From IMG/VR virus record IMGVR_UViG_3300011772_000022, positions 16,259 through 80,258 of that record: a stretch of DNA of 64,000 nucleotides; one strand, written 5' to 3'. Below, one piece after another: positions 946 to 13,343 of the stretch (the stretch's first letter is position 1; each line of letters starts with the position of its first letter). Source of the stretch: a virus (Duplodnaviria; Heunggongvirae; Uroviricota; Caudoviricetes). The position numbers and the translations under genes were made by a program. Below the pieces are notes generated by a model, which saw only the letters and a list, made by a program, of their open reading frames with translations, did not search any database and had not been told where the DNA came from.

Positions 946-1697
946 TTACTTACAAGACCCATATTTCCATCCTAGTTCGAAATCTGAGATGATTGGGCAA
1001 GATAATTTCACTACGTTATCCATAATGTCTTTCGTTATTTCCATCATCGCAGGACCATTTTCAGGTGTAGATACGGCTAACACCTCATCGTGTACCTGTG
1101 CGATTTGACCTTGCTGATATTCTTCACCCGGCGTATTGATGCGATATTGCTCTCGCTCCATCTTAATCATTGCCATTTTGATGTAATCAGCAGACGACCC
1201 CTGTACCTCGGCATTGAAGGATTGTCGTTTTGCTCTGTTCTTTGTACCGTTATCAATACTAAAAATCTCAGTGATTCGGCGGCGACGTCCCGTAATCGTC
1301 TTCACATAACCATACTTAGAAAGGAATTTATGCGTTTGAGCGATTCGTTTTTCAATACCCGGGAAACCATTGAAGAAGTTATCGATGATTTTCTGAGTCT
1401 TAGTCATGTACGTCTTATTGATTTTACCGAATGGGTCCCTCTGTGTAGGACGTGCAAGCCAGAAATCAGGCTCCTTACCAAACCAATCGACCGCAAAGCC
1501 TCGTGTCGTCTTTCCATAGACAAGACCGAATGATACTGCTTTAGCATCTCGACGTTCTGCCTTCGTAATGTCCTTGATTTCCTTACCTGTTACGATGGAA
1601 GCATTATAGTAATGGATATCGTGACCCGCCACGAAACCTGCAATCATTGTTTCTTCTTGTGCTAAGTGAGCCGTCATACGTAATTCCATTTGACCTA
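946..1697 (-). CDS. DNA polymerase I family (family A), exon 2 (motif A tail ELRMTAHL, motif B RRDAKAVSFGLVYG, motif C QVHDEVL)
   Basis: Aligns with E. coli Pol I from IELRIMAHLS through RRSAKAINFGLIYG to QVHDELVFE. The exon start is inferred, not the ORF-track M. Confidence 0.8.
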
Positions 1698-1950
1698 CAG
1701 TTGTGTTACGGATATACCGTTTCCGTATACCCTCTTATAGTTTCCTATAAGCTCAGACTATATCTTCAGGTTTTACCTGCTCCCCGTTTCGAGTTCACTT
1801 GAACCCTACGTCTCTCGACTAGTCGTTGAACCTTCGTGTATAGGTGTCTCTCGACGACTATAGTTGCTTGGCTGCTGATTACCCTCGACTTTACGTTAGG
1901 GCTTCCCAGACAATTAGAGGAGTTTATAAAGGAGACCTAGTTGTTGGTTA
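1698..1950 (-). other. putative self-splicing group I intron interrupting polymerase motif A (boundaries approximate)
   Basis: The upstream ORF ends ..NWWMTVGDLTNN* (T7-like WVQAGID with the catalytic Asp). The downstream ORF resumes ..GQMELRMTAHL after a ~250-nt gap. Joining after the U of GAT-T and before TA-GGT (following an intron-terminal G) gives WWMTVGD-LGQ-MELR, matching DYSQIELR. ACTGTAGG is present at both junctions. Confidence 0.5.
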
Positions 1951-3481
1951 AATCTCCTACAGTCATCCACCAGTTACGCTGAAGCTCTTGGAATGCATCA
2001 CGAATCTTCCATTGGATTTCATAACCAGTATGTTCCGGAGTACCTTCGTCACATGGTTCGAACTCTTTATCTTTCTCATTGTATCTAACAGGAACAACCG
2101 TAAACATAAACGCTTTCTGGATTGCCACCTCTAAAGCATTCGGGTCATCCTTATGTTCCTCACGTAATGGGTCAACCACCTTGTCATATTCTTCAATTGT
2201 AATGAAGTCCTTGAAGATGGCGCCACTCGGTAGATTCTGAAGGTTCGGTCCAGATGACGATAGACGACCTGTAACCGTACCTGTTTGATGGAAGGAGCCA
2301 TGTACCCGACCATCAATATCGATTGCCTTGATGATTCCTTTTACGTAAGTAGATTCAGTCTTTTTCAGTTTACGATATTTCAAGATTAATTCGATAAGTT
2401 CTAAGCCTTCCATTGTCAGGTCAGCCAGTGTTCGTTCTTCCGCAGCTTCTCGACCCATTTTCAATAACTCTTTTAGTGTAGCAGCATCAACCTTAACTGC
2501 CCCCTTGTCCGTCTTCGCAATGATAGGAAGTTTCTTCTCGGCATGTAGTACCTCTGCTAATTGTGGTCCACTTCCAATAGAGAATTCGTGTCCGGCTAAA
2601 GCGAAGATTTGTTTCTCAAGGATATCCATTTCTTTTAAGCAGCGGGCACCGATTGCTTCCAGTACCTCTTGGTTAACAGGCATACCACGTCGTTCTATCC
2701 CTTGAAGTACCCCAACGAACGGCATCTCCACTCCGAATAGAACATCAATAAGTTTCTGCTTTTGTAACAACGGATAGTATTTGATGAACAGTTTAGCAGT
2801 CGCCACAATATCCATCAGTGCGTACGGTAAGGTTAATGTAGCTGAAGCCTCATGGAACCGAAGTTTCTTCCCGAGAATCTTATCGAGCTTATTCATATCC
2901 ATCCCAAGGTCTTCTTTCGCCACGTACTTCAAACCGAAACGTTGACGTTCTTCTTTTACGAGCCATGCCATTACCTGTGTATCAGCACAGGATGCTCTTT
3001 TTGGTAGCTCTTCAATATGTTTCGCCATTGCTTCTTTCGTTTCCGGAGCCACCCATTTCGGTACACATAATTTCGGTCGTAAATCAATACCAACATTCAA
3101 GAAGATATCAGCATCATATTTCAGGTTGTGGGCAATTATCATCTTGTCGAAGTCCAAGAAGAATTCCTTCAGTGCCTCTACAACCATTTTGCGATTTAAG
3201 TATCCAGTCGTTCCCACAACCTTCTCTTGGTCAAGGTGGTACATCGTTGGAATGTACGCCGCATATTCTAGTTTCGTAATGTCATCGTCGATAATACCAA
3301 TACCGATACCACAAATTTCTGCTTTTAAGAATGATAGGTCAGTAGTCTCTAAATCGTACACAATATATTTTGCTTTCTTCAGCCGTGCTAATAACCTTTC
3401 TAATTGCATATGATACACAAGGATATTCTCAGCGTAATCAGGTAATTCTCTTACAGGTCTCTCCAATACTGGTGCTCCCAT
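1951..3481 (-). CDS. DNA polymerase I family, exon 1 (3'-5' exonuclease motifs YDLETTDL, HNLKYD, YALMD; thumb/fingers ..TGRLSSSGPNLQNLP)
   Basis: Conserved Exo I-III and polymerase motifs. Start set to MGAPVLE (ATG 3479-3481) behind RBS AAGAGGAGGAAACGGAA. Confidence 0.8.
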
Positions 3482-3575: not shown

Positions 3576-4511
3576 TTACATGAAACGGATTGGTGTTTCT
3601 CCACCAGTATCAGCAGGGTGTCCATCAAAAGGATTTTGTTGTTGCCCACCTTGTTGACCTTGGTTTGGATTGTAACCTTGGTTCGGATTATAATATGGTT
3701 CACCTTGGTTTTGACCGTAGCCTTGACCTTGTGGATTCCCATAACCCTGCCCCTGAGGTTGACCTTGCGGTTGTCCATAACCTTGCGGTTGGTAACCCTG
3801 TGGCTGATATCCTTGTTGACCATATCCTTGCGGTTGACCACCATAACCTTGTGGTTGACCGTATCCTTGTTGGTAACCACCTTGTTGCTGCTGATTTTGT
3901 TGATTAGGGTTTCGACCTGCTAAAATGTCAGCTAAGTAGCCCGGCTCTTTCGGAGCAATTTGCTTAAACATTTGTTGACGAATCGTTTCAAGCTCTTCAA
4001 CCGTAGGAAGTTTAAGAGTTGCAGTTACGTCCTCTAATGGGACAGGAATGAATGACCATTGAGTCTGTGAGTCACGACCTGTCTTTGTTACTTCCCATGC
4101 ATGATTCAATAAACCACGTTTGCTTTGTTGTGCTTGTAGCGCTTTCAGTGCCTTGATACCAAGTTTCACAATCTTCACCGCATTTTGGCGAGTATGTTTT
4201 TGGTTATCACGTCTAGAAACCCACTCTTCATAACGAGTGTCGATTGCTAAGTAAGCACCTGAAAATGATGGTTTATTACCAGTCGCACATAATGGGCAAT
4301 CCGGTTGTTGTGAGCATGTAAAGTAACGTTTCTGTGGTTTCAGGTAATGTTGGTAGTAGTTAACAGGTTTATCAGTTAAGAATACCAACGTTGCTTCCTC
4401 GTTTTCACCTAAAATGAAATCCGGGATGTAATTACCATTTTGCTCATCTAACTCCTTAGAGCGTTTTTCCACCGCATCGTAACCTTCAGACATCCATGAT
4501 AAATTTGACAT
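3576..4511 (-). CDS. putative ssDNA-binding/DNA-binding protein with Zn-finger ([10 protein letters not shown]) and Q/G/Y-rich disordered C-terminal tail
   Basis: Start MSNLSW behind RBS AAGAGGAGGAAATTTATT. The C-terminal ~90 aa are [14 protein letters not shown]-type repeats, reminiscent of the flexible tails of bacterial SSBs. The SSB assignment is tentative. Confidence 0.4.
3600..3840. repeat. degenerate tandem nucleotide repeats (ccttg(c)ggttg / ccataacc units) encoding the Q/G/Y-rich tail
   Basis: Visible periodicity in the DNA. It generates spurious ORFs on all other frames (3563..3880, 3590..3907, 3618..3923). Confidence 0.6.
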
Positions 4512-4617
4512 AATAAATTTCCTCCTCTTAGTTCGCTCTGTACTCGACAGGCTTTTCCCTTTTAGTTTTCTAAGTATCTCTCTAGTTGTACGCTCTGCCA
4601 TCGGCAGGCAATTTTCG

Positions 4618-5232: not shown

Positions 5233-5457
5233 CTAATTGCTTTTTAAAACCTTTTCTCTTACATATTCGTTCTCAATCATTCGCTTTAATCTAAAAACGT
5301 CGATGATTACGATAATTCCGAAGGTACAGATACAAAGTAACCAGTACCAGAATAAGTAGTGAACCTTTTCTGTAATGTAAATCCTGTGTGCTCCTAATCC
5401 CCCGAGAAAGAGCCATAGTACAAATGCCATCCCAAACGACTTCTGCTCCGTTTTCAT
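5233..5457 (-). CDS. TM2-domain small membrane protein
   Basis: LFLGGLGAHRIY motif between two hydrophobic helices; RBS GGGAGAGGAACAAA. Confidence 0.5.
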   Translation of the reverse strand: MKTEQKSFGMAFVLWLFLGGLGAHRIYITEKVHYLFWYWLLCICTFGIIVIIDVFRLKRMIENEYVREKVLKSN

Positions 5458-5478: not shown

Positions 5479-5694
5479 TTATTCCGGGTTTCGAGCAATT
5501 GCGGCGTTTGCCCACATCATTGCTTCCTCAAGTTTCGTTTTAGCAAGTGATAACTCTCTTGAGGGTGGACATAGTGAATCTAGTGTCTGTGCTAAGAATT
5601 GGCATTTATTTCTTACCAATTCATGTGATTGTGCCTTATTTCCAGTTGGTGCATGATAAGCGAAGTTATTTTCATTTGACCCGATTGCCGCCAT
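5479..5694 (-). CDS. hypothetical protein (71 aa)
   Basis: RBS AAAGGGAGAGAAGCAAA before the ATG. Confidence 0.45.
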   Translation of the reverse strand: MAAIGSNENNFAYHAPTGNKAQSHELVRNKCQFLAQTLDSLCPPSRELSLAKTKLEEAMMWANAAIARNPE

Positions 5695-5748: not shown

Positions 5749-6060
5749 TTAACCGTTATTTTCAGCTTCTTCAAATTTTTCTGTTGCCTCTTCAAAAGCC
5801 TTGAACACCGCTTCTTTAAAACCATCAGGAATTGGTAACCCTTGTTTTAAATCGTAAGCATCCACTGTTCGTTTAATGGCTTTGATTTGGTCAGTTGAGT
5901 ATAATCGTCTTCCAGATTGCGCTCGATATGTTGCAGCAGGGATGATTCCGAGTCTTTCCCATTTGCGAATCGTTTGCCCTTGACGTTCTAGCTTATTAGC
6001 CAGTTCTCCGATAGTATGCAATTCGATGTCTTTACCACCTATAGTGTAGATTTTGCCCAT
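5749..6060 (-). CDS. MerR-family helix-turn-helix DNA-binding protein (start re-assigned to MGKIYTIG)
   Basis: YTIGELANKLERQGQTIRKWERLGIIP is a MerR-type HTH; RBS AAAGGAGGAAAGAAC before ATG 6058-6060. Confidence 0.55.
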   Translation of the reverse strand: MGKIYTIGGKDIELHTIGELANKLERQGQTIRKWERLGIIPAATYRAQSGRRLYSTDQIKAIKRTVDAYDLKQGLPIPDGFKEAVFKAFEEATEKFEEAENNG

Positions 6061-6098
6061 GTTCTTTCCTCCTTTCATGCCCTGCCCGAACGACATCA

Positions 6099-6623
6099 TT
6101 ACTTCTTCTTAGCTACTTTGAAGGCATACGTTACTTCACTTCTTGTAACGTTCTTTAACTCTTCCTCAGAAATTCTCTCTCCAAGGTATGCCTGCTCAAG
6201 TGCCTGTGGTGACACTTCAAATTCTACATCATCAACCAGTTTAGAATTGTAAAGCAGTAGCTCATCTAAAATGGCTTTCGGTTCGATGTTATTGAATTTC
6301 GGTGTCAACAACTTATGAAGTTGACGTTTCTGGAATAACTTAACGCTTTCCTCTTGATTTATTTTGACAGAAGTTCGAGCTTCTTTTTTGATTGATGACC
6401 CATCCTCTAGTTTAATCATGTAAGAACCTTTGTCATCTTGTTTTCCTTCAGCCTCAGCTAAGTCAAATGCACGTAGACGTATGTGTTTTTCGTAGGCTTT
6501 CAATACCTCCGCCAGAGATTTTACTCGCAGAGCATTACGTGAAACCTCCGCTGCTGATAATTCTGTGATGTTCGTATCTAGACCCAATACCTCTAACATT
6601 GCTTTTTCATTTGTTTCAAACAT
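6099..6623 (-). CDS. hypothetical protein (174 aa)
   Basis: RBS TAGGAGGAGACAAATT before the ATG. Confidence 0.5.
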   Translation of the reverse strand: MFETNEKAMLEVLGLDTNITELSAAEVSRNALRVKSLAEVLKAYEKHIRLRAFDLAEAEGKQDDKGSYMIKLEDGSSIKKEARTSVKINQEESVKLFQKRQLHKLLTPKFNNIEPKAILDELLLYNSKLVDDVEFEVSPQALEQAYLGERISEEELKNVTRSEVTYAFKVAKKK

Positions 6624-7333: not shown

Positions 7334-7510
7334 CTAGAACGGTAGTACAGTAACAGAGAAGTGGAGCATCAAATCATTTTCTACCTTACAATCAAAGCAG
7401 TTTGCTTTCATGTTCAATATCCCCTCTTTAATTACGTACCCTTCAGGTAGGCGGCTTATATTTCTTGTTTTACATTCCTCACAATGCCACTCAAGGGTAA
7501 TTCGATTCAA
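7334..7510 (-). CDS. possible small Zn-ribbon ORF (TTG start; alternative ATG at 7411)
   Basis: GGGAGGG RBS 7 nt before the TTG; encodes ..EWHCEECKTR..NMKANCFDCKVEND... Confidence 0.2.
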   Translation of the reverse strand: MNRITLEWHCEECKTRNISRLPEGYVIKEGILNMKANCFDCKVENDLMLHFSVTVLPF

Positions 7511-7525
7511 CCTTCTTCCCTCCCA

Positions 7526-8884
7526 CTAATTAGTATGAACAGGATAACCAAGGTCGCCATAGATTCTACATCGTTTGAAGAATTGATTCATGCAAATCTC
7601 TACGCCTGTATCTACAATATCCAGTACCAGTGGTTCACGTTTGGTTGCGTGTAACCTTGTGATTCTGCCCACTCCTTGTTGTATGGTTATTGCATTTGAT
7701 ACAGGTGAAGCAAAGATTGCCGTATCTAATTCCGGGATATCTAAAGCCTCTTTAGCTATATGGTAAGTTGCGAAGAGCACGTTACATTCTTCAGCAACCT
7801 TATCCCTGTCTTCTTGATTCATCTTACCAACATATAGTCCACTAGTGAAGTCGGTATTTTTGGCAAGTTCATTGAATTCCTTGTTCAATAACTCTAGGTG
7901 AGCAACCCGTTCGGAGAATACAATTATCTTCCGACCTGCCTTCACCGCCTGAGCCGTTAAGTTTAATATCAATTGGTTCCGGCGTGGTAATTTACCAAGA
8001 CCTGTGACCAGTTTTGATATGTGGACGTCACCATTGTATTGCTTAAATTCATCAAGATTCATCTGTTCGTAATAATCAACTCGAACAATATTCGGCTTCA
8101 ATTCATCCGCTTTTAGTCGATGGATAACAGGACCGATATGTGAAAGGAATACTTCTTGTAATCCATCACTTCTATCGACCGTTGCCGTTAATCCCCAACG
8201 TCGTCGAGCCGGGAACATTGTTACTACATACGACCATGTATCAGCTGCAACCCTATGAACCTCATCCGATATAACCAGACCGAAGTATTCTAGGAATCCA
8301 TCAGGAATAGAATCCCTACGAGAATATAAGGTTTGTAGCATACCAACCACAATCTTCTTACCTTCCCATTCCCATTTGTCTCCTCGAACTATACCTGCAT
8401 CGTACCCAAGATGTTCCTTGATACGTTCCACCCATTGGTTCTGTAAAAATTCCTTATGTACAAGTATGAGTGTTGTTCGTCCTACGTTTGCGATTGAGGC
8501 TAAAGACATTACTGTTTTCCCTGTACCACATCCGGCTTGCAATATTCCACCAGTGCTCTTCGTTAAATCTTCTACGGCAGGCAATTGGTATTCTCGTAAA
8601 GATGATTGAAATTCAATATCTACTTTATGTCCATCCACCATTTTGTCAGTACAATAGGGTAATAGTTGCATTAATTCATTGTCTAAGTTTCTTGGAACAT
8701 ATACCAATCCATCTTTTTCGTGCCACATGTTAAGATGAGTTGGAATGCCTCTGGTTGAGGCACCCCGCTTCATTGCACTTATGAAGTCTGGATTCGGTAA
8801 GGTCAGAGCATCATACACCTGAGCCGGAATATCTTCTTCCTTATATACTCGGTGTGTTCGCACCAATCCTGTCATAATAACCAT
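7526..8884 (-). CDS. superfamily-2 DNA helicase (DEAH/UvsW/RAD25-like)
   Basis: Walker A AGCGTGKT, DEAH box VISDEVHR, and a helicase C-terminal domain. Confidence 0.8.
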   Translation of the reverse strand: MVIMTGLVRTHRVYKEEDIPAQVYDALTLPNPDFISAMKRGASTRGIPTHLNMWHEKDGLVYVPRNLDNELMQLLPYCTDKMVDGHKVDIEFQSSLREYQLPAVEDLTKSTGGILQAGCGTGKTVMSLASIANVGRTTLILVHKEFLQNQWVERIKEHLGYDAGIVRGDKWEWEGKKIVVGMLQTLYSRRDSIPDGFLEYFGLVISDEVHRVAADTWSYVVTMFPARRRWGLTATVDRSDGLQEVFLSHIGPVIHRLKADELKPNIVRVDYYEQMNLDEFKQYNGDVHISKLVTGLGKLPRRNQLILNLTAQAVKAGRKIIVFSERVAHLELLNKEFNELAKNTDFTSGLYVGKMNQEDRDKVAEECNVLFATYHIAKEALDIPELDTAIFASPVSNAITIQQGVGRITRLHATKREPLVLDIVDTGVEICMNQFFKRCRIYGDLGYPVHTN

Positions 8885-10286: not shown

Positions 10287-10682
10287 CTATTGTAATGTAA
10301 TTTCGATTCCCGGTTTTAATCGGTCCACATAGATGTCACCCTCAGGATATCCAGTGTTTGCAGCAATCTGTTTTATCTCATATAGAAATGGGTCATTCGA
10401 GAATACTATTCTCATACCCGGTTTTAATTTCATAATCTGATTCCAAGCCAATACCTTCTTACCCAGTTCCTCATGTCCAACATATGTTTTAAACGTAAGC
10501 TCAACCGTCTCCATAGACATATCTTTTGTCCCCCATTTACATTCGAAGTCAGCAAAGATTTCATTACACTTTGGGCATCTAAAGACGTCGCCGAATTCCA
10601 AGGTTTCCTCATAAGCAATAGAAGGAGTGGTCCAACGCATACAATGAATACATTGAATCGTTGATACCCTCATCTCACACAC
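10287..10682 (-). CDS. hypothetical Zn-finger protein
   Basis: CIHCMRW...CPKCNE motifs. Confidence 0.45.
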   Translation of the reverse strand: MCEMRVSTIQCIHCMRWTTPSIAYEETLEFGDVFRCPKCNEIFADFECKWGTKDMSMETVELTFKTYVGHEELGKKVLAWNQIMKLKPGMRIVFSNDPFLYEIKQIAANTGYPEGDIYVDRLKPGIEITLQ

Positions 10683-10905
10683 CTCTTATCGGAGGTCGTT
10701 TGTCTTTCTGCTTCTTGCCTTTGTAATCGTTATGTCTACCGTGGCGCAAATCCTCTAAACACTCATTGTGATAGAATTGTCCTTGGTATTTTACAACCGC
10801 CCGCTGCCCGAATTTCTTCATACAAATCGTGCAACGAACAGTTGTAACGTTTACTCCGGCGGTTAACTTTCTTCGTTGTTGGTGCTCTCTTCCCGCCATT
10901 GACAT
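10675..10905 (-). CDS. hypothetical Zn-ribbon protein
   Basis: CTICMKK...HNECLEDLRHGRH. Confidence 0.45.
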   Translation of the reverse strand: MSMAGREHQQRRKLTAGVNVTTVRCTICMKKFGQRAVVKYQGQFYHNECLEDLRHGRHNDYKGKKQKDKRPPIRGV

Positions 10906-12769: not shown

Positions 12770-12996
12770 TGTTCTTCTACCTCTCTGTAAATTAAGATTA
12801 GTTTTGTTTCAAATTCAATTTCATTTCCGTTCCCGAATTGCCCCCAACCGATGTTACTTACCAAAAGATTAACGTATTCAATTCCGGGTTGCTGCAAGAA
12901 GTCTGTTACCTGCTGAGATGTAGTAATTCTTGTTCGACTTTTATCTTCATTGACAATAAGGTTATCTGTAAATTCTTTTACAAGTGGATTACTCAT
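12766..12996 (-). CDS. hypothetical protein (76 aa)
   Basis: ORF. Confidence 0.45.
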   Translation of the reverse strand: MSNPLVKEFTDNLIVNEDKSRTRITTSQQVTDFLQQPGIEYVNLLVSNIGWGQFGNGNEIEFETKLILIYREVEEQ

Positions 12997-13343
12997 TTCT
13001 TTCTCCTTTTCTTCTTGTCGTTTTCTTCAAGAACCTTATCAAGTAAGTCCGATAAGATTTCATCTAGTTGTCGTTGTGTTTCTTGTTTAACAGTTGTTAT
13101 CTTTCCGTTATACCCCTTCATGAAAGAGTACGTCTGTTCATTGAAGAAGATTACAATTGCATAAGTTTCTCCACCAACCGTTATTGTATGTGTTACTTGC
13201 ACCCTGCCTCTGGATGGATTAAATTGATTTGATAAGTCATTAACGTTTTCTACTCTTATTACTTCTACCGGACCTTGTGCTGAGTCTGCGGTGATTTCTT
13301 TAAGTGTCAAAAGTACGTTTACTTTCATGTGATTTTCCTCCAT
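12993..13343 (-). CDS. hypothetical protein (116 aa)
   Basis: RBS ATGGAGGAAAATCAC before the ATG. Confidence 0.5.
   Translation of the reverse strand: MEENHMKVNVLLTLKEITADSAQGPVEVIRVENVNDLSNQFNPSRGRVQVTHTITVGGETYAIVIFFNEQTYSFMKGYNGKITTVKQETQRQLDEILSDLLDKVLEENDKKKRRKK

Follow-up and report, generated by a model that had tools for sequence, protein, structure and literature searches.

A 253-nt group I intron without an endonuclease gene in motif A of a phage family-A DNA polymerase

Gene callers report two neighboring ORFs, of 514 aa and about 233-247 aa, on the minus strand of the phage DNA analyzed here, and each resembles a part of a family-A DNA polymerase. The locus raises the question of whether these are two working polypeptides, the pieces of a dead gene, or a single polymerase gene whose coding sequence is rejoined in the RNA and, if the last is the case, what kind of element divides it and how that element came to be there. 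We call the whole 64-kb stretch of DNA that was analyzed the window, and all positions refer to it unless another record is named. An earlier note on this DNA had proposed that the polymerase is interrupted inside motif A by a putative group I intron of ~250 nt that has no homing-endonuclease ORF.

A polymerase gene cut in two within motif A

Exon 1 extends on the minus strand from an AUG at 3481 to position 1951 (ORF list and translation), and its start codon is preceded by a strong ribosome-binding site, AAAGAGGAGG, at a spacing of N7; the ribosome-binding sites in this DNA belong to the Gram-positive type. Exon 1 encodes the 3'-5' exonuclease domain and the N-terminal part of the polymerase domain, matching Pfam DNA_pol_A_exo1 and DNA_pol_A profile positions 2-133, and its product is identical to a database protein of 514 aa (P0001). 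Exon 2 (1697..946, minus strand), which lies in a different frame from the exon 1 ORF, matches DNA_pol_A profile positions 162-379 and contains the rest of motif A (..L-GQMELR, within GQMELRMTAHL), motif B (RRDAKAVSFGLVYG), and motif C (QVHDEVL). Since the DNA_pol_A profile is shared out over both ORFs, they represent one family-A polymerase cut in two in the palm domain.

The last complete codon of exon 1 is the motif A Asp codon, GAU, and it is followed by a single U, the first base of the codon for Leu511. In an alignment with the Klenow fragment, D510 falls on chain residue 382, where the motif reads DYSQIELR; we take this residue to be D705 of E. coli Pol I, assuming that the 605-residue chain begins at 324. 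This numbering places the insertion site at D705/Y706 of E. coli Pol I, one base past the codon for the catalytic Asp of motif A. The interruption lies inside motif A, as the earlier note had claimed, and the exon and intron coordinates given there are correct to the base. Read without splicing, exon 1 continues to ..QRNWWMTVGDLTNN and is ended by a UAG (1939-1937) that lies within the internal guide sequence, the intron having contributed five codons by then.

The interruption is a group I intron

The interruption is exactly 253 nt long (1950..1698, minus strand). An Rfam covariance search, which the earlier note had suggested for this region, returned a full-length match to RF00028 on the minus strand (1734-1991, model positions 1-253) that scores 80.7 bits (gathering threshold 50; E 6.8e-21). 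By the same search the window holds one group I intron only, and no other Rfam family scored above threshold anywhere in the 64 kb. There is no sense-strand ORF of at least 30 aa within 1698-1950, the only ORFs inside the intron being two antisense ones of 34-35 aa. The intron has an MFE z-score of -2.59, and its J3/4 (AAUUG), J6/7 with P7 (UCAACGACUA), and J8/7 with the returning P7 strand (AAGAUAUAGUCU) follow the Rfam consensus nearly letter for letter.

We placed the helices on window coordinates (minus strand) and checked each string. P1 has as its 5' strand the 7 nt that end exon 1, GGAGAUU (1951..1957), which pair with GGUCUCC (1937-1931) of the internal guide sequence (1931..1940); the 5' splice site is marked by the U•G pair of the final U. 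The other part of the guide, CUA (1940-1938), forms a 3-bp P10 with UAG, the first three nucleotides of exon 2. The 5' strand of P3, CUCCUC (1917..1922), pairs with GGGGAG at 1785-1780. The P4-P5 domain (1873..1912) consists of P4, UG(U)CUGG/UCAGCA, and P5, CCCU/AGGG, and is followed by P6 with an extended P6a/P6b hairpin (1830..1872; UAUAG/CUAUA and GUC-GAGA-GAC with a GAGA cap). The consensus J6/7, UCAAC, directly precedes the 5' strand of P7, GACUA (1820..1824), which pairs with UAGUC at 1760-1756 and so makes the P3/P7 pseudoknot. Two peripheral hairpins occupy the region 1791..1819 between P7 and the 3' strand of P3, namely P7.1 (GUC-GAGA-GAC, 1819-1810) and P7.2 (GGGUUC-AAGU-GAACUC, 1806-1791). 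P8 is a minimal 13-nt hairpin (CAGGU-AAA-ACCUG, 1767..1779); J8/7 with the 3' strand of P7, AAGAUAUAGUC (1756..1766), is identical to the Rfam consensus; and P9 (CUUAUAG-GAAA-CUAUAAG) and P9.1 (GGGUAUAC..GUAUAUCC) together span 1710..1751. A 12-nt tail (1698..1709) completes the intron, with the terminal G at 1698 as the 3' splice site.

The conserved core of P3 through P9 is therefore present, including the P3/P7 pseudoknot, and P1 was located as well. No P2 helix was found in the window intron, where the spacer between P1 and P3 is only 8 nt (UUUAUAAA) and the Rfam alignment deletes the P2 positions. P7.1 and P7.2 hairpins are a hallmark of subgroup IA, as in the IA2-type phage introns of T4 td and SPO1, and by these two hairpins the window intron is IA-like. 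Absence of P2 is unusual for textbook IA2 introns.

Relatives interrupted at the same place

Among 5.8 billion proteins searched, only nine belong to this polymerase clade; five of them are uninterrupted and three, besides the window protein, are truncated at this place. All three of the corresponding loci (L001, L002, and L003) contain Rfam-positive introns (59.9-72.1 bits), likewise lack P2, keep the terminal G, and are likewise called as split genes. When IMG/VR, one genome per GTDB species, and JGI metagenomes were searched for further members, only MTEU01003794.1, which is L001 itself, was close, and the remaining matches were bacterial Pol I proteins at 25-30% identity. In a megablast comparison with 50,697 phage records, the gene had no match beyond 57 nt of the intron core. 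Scanning IMG/VR for the P7.2-P3' motif gave nine contigs, five of them Rfam-positive, which we left unused because in none of them does the motif lie in this polymerase. A syntenic intronless locus (L035), which reads GTAGGGGACTTGTCGCAGATGGAA at the site, has no Rfam match.

The extra DNA of the three related introns lies in the P8 loop each time. The L001 intron (MTEU01003794.1, 7532-8217) is 686 nt long and carries a 139-aa HNH_3 gene, and the 689-nt intron of L003 carries a 134-aa HNH_3 gene, the two HNH proteins being 64% identical. The 524-nt intron of L002 contains a 67-aa ORF that matches only the N-terminal part of these HNH proteins (E 6e-9) and has no HNH domain, so we regard it as a truncated remnant. 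L001 is the most similar to the window, with 87% protein identity in the polymerase, the same splice sites (GAUU|UAACC ... ACUG|UAGG), and the same P1, P3, P7, P7.2, P9, and P9.1. It differs in having the HNH_3 gene in its P8 loop, where the window has a 13-nt hairpin, and in its P4-P6 domain, which is 66% identical and shorter by 23 nt, the window intron being longer in the P6 region.

Several further features of these relatives were observed. The L003 intron (7474-8162) lies one nucleotide upstream of the site used in the window, L001, and L002 (GAU|UAC, phase 0, versus GAUU|UA, phase 1), and its own P1 and 6-bp P10 suit the shifted position. L003 has two more Rfam-positive group I introns, at 10495-10787 and 12931-13210, in recA-like and ribonucleotide-reductase genes, and at 1522-3295 a split ResIII helicase with weak intein-splicing Pfam matches. 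The P8 loops of L001 (~7690-7745), L002 (~5300-5340), and L003 (~7630-7685) all open with the conserved element CUCCAU..N..AUGGAAUUA, after which come GGGAGG and the endonuclease start codon; this element may be a signal for endonuclease expression.

Covariation among the four introns

The window, L001, L002, and L003 introns were compared after trimming the P8 inserts. RNAalifold recovered P3, P4, P5, P7.1, P7.2, P8, P9, and P9.1, with compensatory double changes in 18 of its 52 pairs. Because P1, P9 of L002, and the 5' strand of P4 were out of register in the MAFFT alignment, we also built a helix table by hand, which agrees with RNAalifold and adds P1, P7, and P10. Compensatory changes support P1, P3, P4, P7.1, P7.2, P8, P9, P9.1, and P10. 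The P1 pairing GGAGAUU/GGUCUCC of the window becomes AGUGAUU/GGUCACU in L002 and GGGGAU/GUCCCC in L003; P3 changes at two positions (2 and 3, with U-A and C-G swapped) and P4 at several; P7.1 goes from GUC/GAC in the window to GCC/GGC in L001; P7.2 reads GGGUCC/GGACUC in L002; and L002 and L003 have compensatory changes in both P9 and P9.1, those in P9.1 affecting three consecutive pairs. P10 follows the sequence of exon 2, being CUA/UAG in the window and L001, GGCUUA/UAAGUC in L002, and UCCGUA/UACGGA in L003 (6 bp in the last two versus 3 bp in the window), a pattern that directly supports the 3' splice sites. P7 does not vary among the four introns and is thus uninformative for covariation. 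With four sequences, of which the window and L001 are nearly identical outside P4-P6, these counts serve as supporting evidence rather than statistical proof.

Predicted splicing and its product

The intron is preceded by a U (1951) and ends in ..ACUG with its terminal G at 1698, both as the earlier note had described. Joining 1951 to 1697 gives the predicted ligated-exon junction GGAGAUU|UAGGUCAAAUGG (junction 24-mer GTAGGAGATTTAGGTCAAATGGAA) and rebuilds Leu511 from U and UA, yielding a 760-aa protein that reads ..WWMTVGD-L-GQMELRMTAHL.. across the junction. This protein aligns without gaps to the five intronless homologs (~55% identity), which have WWLVVGDLSQMELRMTAHL or WWLIVGDYGQMELRMTAHL at the junction (VGDLSQMELR, VGDYGQMELR) with the same spacing, and it is likewise colinear with DYSQIELR of the Klenow fragment. 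The proposal of splicing after GAU-U and before UA-GGU fits the P1 U•G pair, the 3-bp P10, and the terminal G, and the predicted VGD-L-GQMELR has the spacing that had been claimed for it.

The ribozyme, its helices, its splice geometry, the colinearity of the joined product, and the endonuclease-bearing relatives are established by this analysis, and they make it very probable that the polymerase is expressed from one pre-mRNA from which the 253-nt ribozyme removes itself, restoring the 760-aa protein. By analogy with the standard group I pathway, splicing would depend on guanosine. The gene would be transcribed as a single pre-mRNA, in which GGAGAUU at the end of exon 1 would pair with GGUCUCC of the guide to form P1, and a free guanosine bound at P7 would attack after the U at 1951. 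The guide CUA would then hold UAG, the first bases of exon 2, in P10, and the freed 3'-OH of exon 1 would attack behind the terminal G (1698). The ligated exons would contain the complete Leu511 codon (U+UA) and encode the 760-aa polymerase, whose motif A (VGD-L-GQMELR) would be intact, and any RNA left unspliced would be translated only into the 514-aa product that ends at the UAG in the guide sequence. For annotation, the two called ORFs would then be read as one replicative polymerase of 760 aa.

It is very improbable, in our judgment, that the insert is instead a decayed relic that no longer splices, with the polymerase working as two associating polypeptides or the gene being dead. Such a relic might be expected from the missing endonuclease gene and P2 helix, from a competing helix between P6a and P7 in the MFE fold, and from the in-frame AUG at 1689 with which exon 2 opens, as well as from the two ORFs of the gene callers. 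However, every core element fits the Rfam consensus at 80.7 bits, the helix pairing has been kept by compensatory changes, and both exons are intact, with 87-89% protein identity to L001. Neither half alone carries a complete motif A, because the cut lies one base past the catalytic Asp codon. The only signal upstream of the AUG at 1689 is an AGG 4 nt away, as opposed to the AAAGAGGAGG that precedes exon 1, which makes independent translation of exon 2 unlikely.

The competing helix arises from repeats within the intron. The 10-nt sequence of the P7.1 hairpin, GUCGAGAGAC (1810-1819), recurs exactly in the enlarged P6 (1846-1855), and beside this copy UAGUCGUCGA is 90% complementary to the J6/7 and P7 5' strand sequence, forming an inverted repeat with arms at 1820-1829 and 1851-1860. 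The MFE fold prefers to pair UAGUCGU of P6a (intron positions 92-98) with ACGACUA of J6/7 and the P7 5' strand, and this helix, once formed, would block P7. On the strength of the predicted fold, the RNA could conceivably have two states and make splicing, and hence polymerase synthesis, conditional on, for example, temperature, Mg2+, or ribosome position, which we think improbable. If the RNA did behave in this way, the ORF-less intron would be a domesticated regulator rather than a spent selfish element.

A different objection to self-splicing comes from the octamer ACTGTAGG, which the earlier note had pointed out at both junctions. It is indeed present at both, at 1956-1963 and 1694-1701, and one could read it as a target-site duplication or recombination scar, the insert being some other mobile element and not an intron. 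We give this practically no credence. The closest relative, L001, shares the intron and its splice sites but has ACCGTGGG in exon 1, so the repeat is not conserved; the window contains four copies of the octamer against 1.55 expected, a number reached in 8 of 100 shuffles and thus within chance; and the two junction copies are placed differently, one 5-12 nt upstream of the 5' site and the other straddling the 3' site. The Rfam match and the covariation, moreover, identify the insert as a ribozyme. Group I homing leaves no target-site duplication, and we know of no role for an octamer repeat in group I splicing or homing. Not conserved in the closest relative and within chance in copy number, the octamer was rejected as a functional repeat, and we treat it as a chance occurrence.

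Probable loss of the endonuclease and history of the intron

With no endonuclease in it, the window intron is unable to home on its own. We also considered a free-standing endonuclease that might mobilize it in trans and rejected this candidate: the HNH proteins of the relatives had no tblastn match in the window, and Pfam found no HNH, GIY-YIG, or LAGLIDADG domain among 30 ORFs of the replication module (0.5 to 25 kb of the window). At this single site the clade includes empty alleles, HNH-bearing introns, one intron with a decayed endonuclease, and the ORF-less intron of the window.

The window intron most likely descends from an HNH-bearing intron at the same site by loss of the P8-loop insert, with the direction of change read from sequence comparison. 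A single loss is the most parsimonious account, because the endonucleases of the relatives are homologous and sit in the same helix, and because the window polymerase is sister to that of the endonuclease-bearing L001. The case for loss is one of parsimony, since the P8 regions of the window and L001 differ too strongly to reveal a simple deletion, and no clean scar of one can be seen.

This last point would also fit a different history of the same ribozyme, in which the ORF-less state is ancestral. So would the closeness of the window's P3-P5 segment to the ORF-less polymerase intron of Bacillus phage Belinda, closer than to L001, and the documented convergence of ORF-less introns and free-standing endonucleases on one site (PMC3984707). 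We consider an ancestral ORF-less state possible but somewhat doubtful. Against it, the HNH genes of L001 and L003, 64% identical, occupy the same helix in distant clade members, with host polymerases ~52% identical to that of the window, L002 keeps an endonuclease remnant, and, with the window polymerase sister to that of L001 at 87% identity, one loss is simpler than several gains. The window also contains no free-standing homolog of these endonucleases, and its 30 examined ORFs no HNH or GIY-YIG domain.

The window intron looks mosaic when its segments are compared. Whereas the exons of the window and L001 share 84-85% DNA identity, the last 69 nt of their introns are 100% identical, which points to constraint or recent exchange; the first 38 nt are 95% identical, and P4-P6 is 66% identical, with the 23 extra nucleotides in the window. 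The P3-P5 segment (1868-1922) matches the Belinda intron (L036) at 48 of 54 positions and the same-site intron of L001 at 43 of 51 with gaps, and its closer match to introns of other Bacillus phages suggests exchange with them. With its range of alleles at one position, this small and rarely sampled phage clade offers a compact natural series of the cycle of gain, decay, and loss proposed for homing elements, and it could serve for studies of that cycle.

Neighboring genes and assembly

Directly upstream of the polymerase, at 3576-4601 (minus strand), lies a 341-aa ORF with no Pfam match and a CPLC motif. It also has a ~110-residue repeat region rich in Gln, Gly, Tyr, and Pro (GYGQPQGY..) that ends in ..GETPIRFM, and it may resemble single-strand-binding proteins whose tail is flexible. 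Farther upstream, at 5479-5694 (minus strand), a 71-aa ORF has a precomputed Pfam match to PF24729 (Acb2_Tad1_hairpin), a family of sponge proteins with which phages counter CBASS and Thoeris. On its two sides lie a TM2-domain ORF and a MerR-like regulator (5233-5457, 5749-6099), and the same trio is found upstream of the L001 polymerase.

The Logan contig SRR1749594_622 (86,552 nt) encodes a protein identical to that of exon 1 and ends at about window position 811, past which the window goes on (region 1-810) to a recA-like gene. This might reflect a circularly permuted genome, or the window might derive from a different assembly of this phage.

Comparison with known phage polymerase introns

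The earlier note had stated that group I introns at this position of the polymerase gene are established for SPO1-type phages, which does not hold. In E. coli Pol I numbering, the introns of SPO1, SP82, Bastille, and Pf-WMP3 are at residue 674, that of phiL7 is at residue 676, and those of PhiI and W31 are at residue 881; the Pf-WMP3 intron has been described as IA2 (PMC3428280). In the Klenow alignment P674 falls on P412 of the window protein, inside the intact exon 1 (GRLSSSGPNLQNLP), so the window intron at D705/Y706 occupies a different site. Like it, the introns of SPO1, SP82, Bastille, and Pf-WMP3 (I-HmuI, I-HmuII, I-BasI, and I-PfoP3I) are group I introns in a conserved motif of a phage family-A polymerase, but they lie at residue 674 (..SSxxPNLQN..) and encode HNH nicking endonucleases, whereas the window intron, at 705/706, has no ORF. 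For the PhiI/W31 intron, Bonocora and Shub are said to have placed the HNH ORF in P6a in 2004. The introns of these two T7-like phages differ from that of the window in their site (881, motif C) and in having an HNH ORF (I-TslI in W31; PMC3428280).

Nor is the window intron unusually small, as had been supposed. ORF-less introns are a recognized class (PMC3984707), and those in the polymerase genes of Belinda (260 nt) and BOESR1 (245 nt; L037, 2898-3142) are comparably small and Rfam-positive (96.4 and 91.4 bits), each splitting a family-A polymerase that is annotated as two CDSs. With splice sites assigned solely by reading frame and the U/G rule, the Belinda intron lies at the SPO1 site (..RLSSAGP|NLQNLP..) and the BOESR1 intron in motif B (..FIYGFL|YGAG..), in contrast to the motif A site of the window.

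Motif B introns also occur in Wphvirus-related phages. The polymerase of Bacillus phage Darren (L038) is split into two CDSs in motif B (..VVYG|E..) by an insert that scores below the Rfam threshold, and DIGNKC and Kida are likely further cases. Candidates for a motif A intron among Bastillevirinae polymerases were rejected, Darren's second intron being in motif B and the split gene of Bacillus phage Tomato an assembly artifact. The Tomato record (L039, MT584805.1, ~107500-107620) has the Illumina adapter CAAGCAGAAGACGGCATACGAGAT.. and a run of N inside the polymerase gene, together with a duplicated polymerase segment, which mimics a split gene.

A literature search found no published description of a motif A intron site in a polymerase gene. 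Motif A may be an undescribed insertion site, as it is absent from the 2012 list of residues 674, 676, and 881 (PMC3428280). The window intron itself is an ORF-less, IA-like group I element of the ordinary phage kind and leaves the current understanding of group I introns unchanged. Taken together, the sites in the window, in BOESR1 and Darren, and in PhiI and W31 suggest that group I introns can be accommodated in all three catalytic motifs of family-A polymerases.
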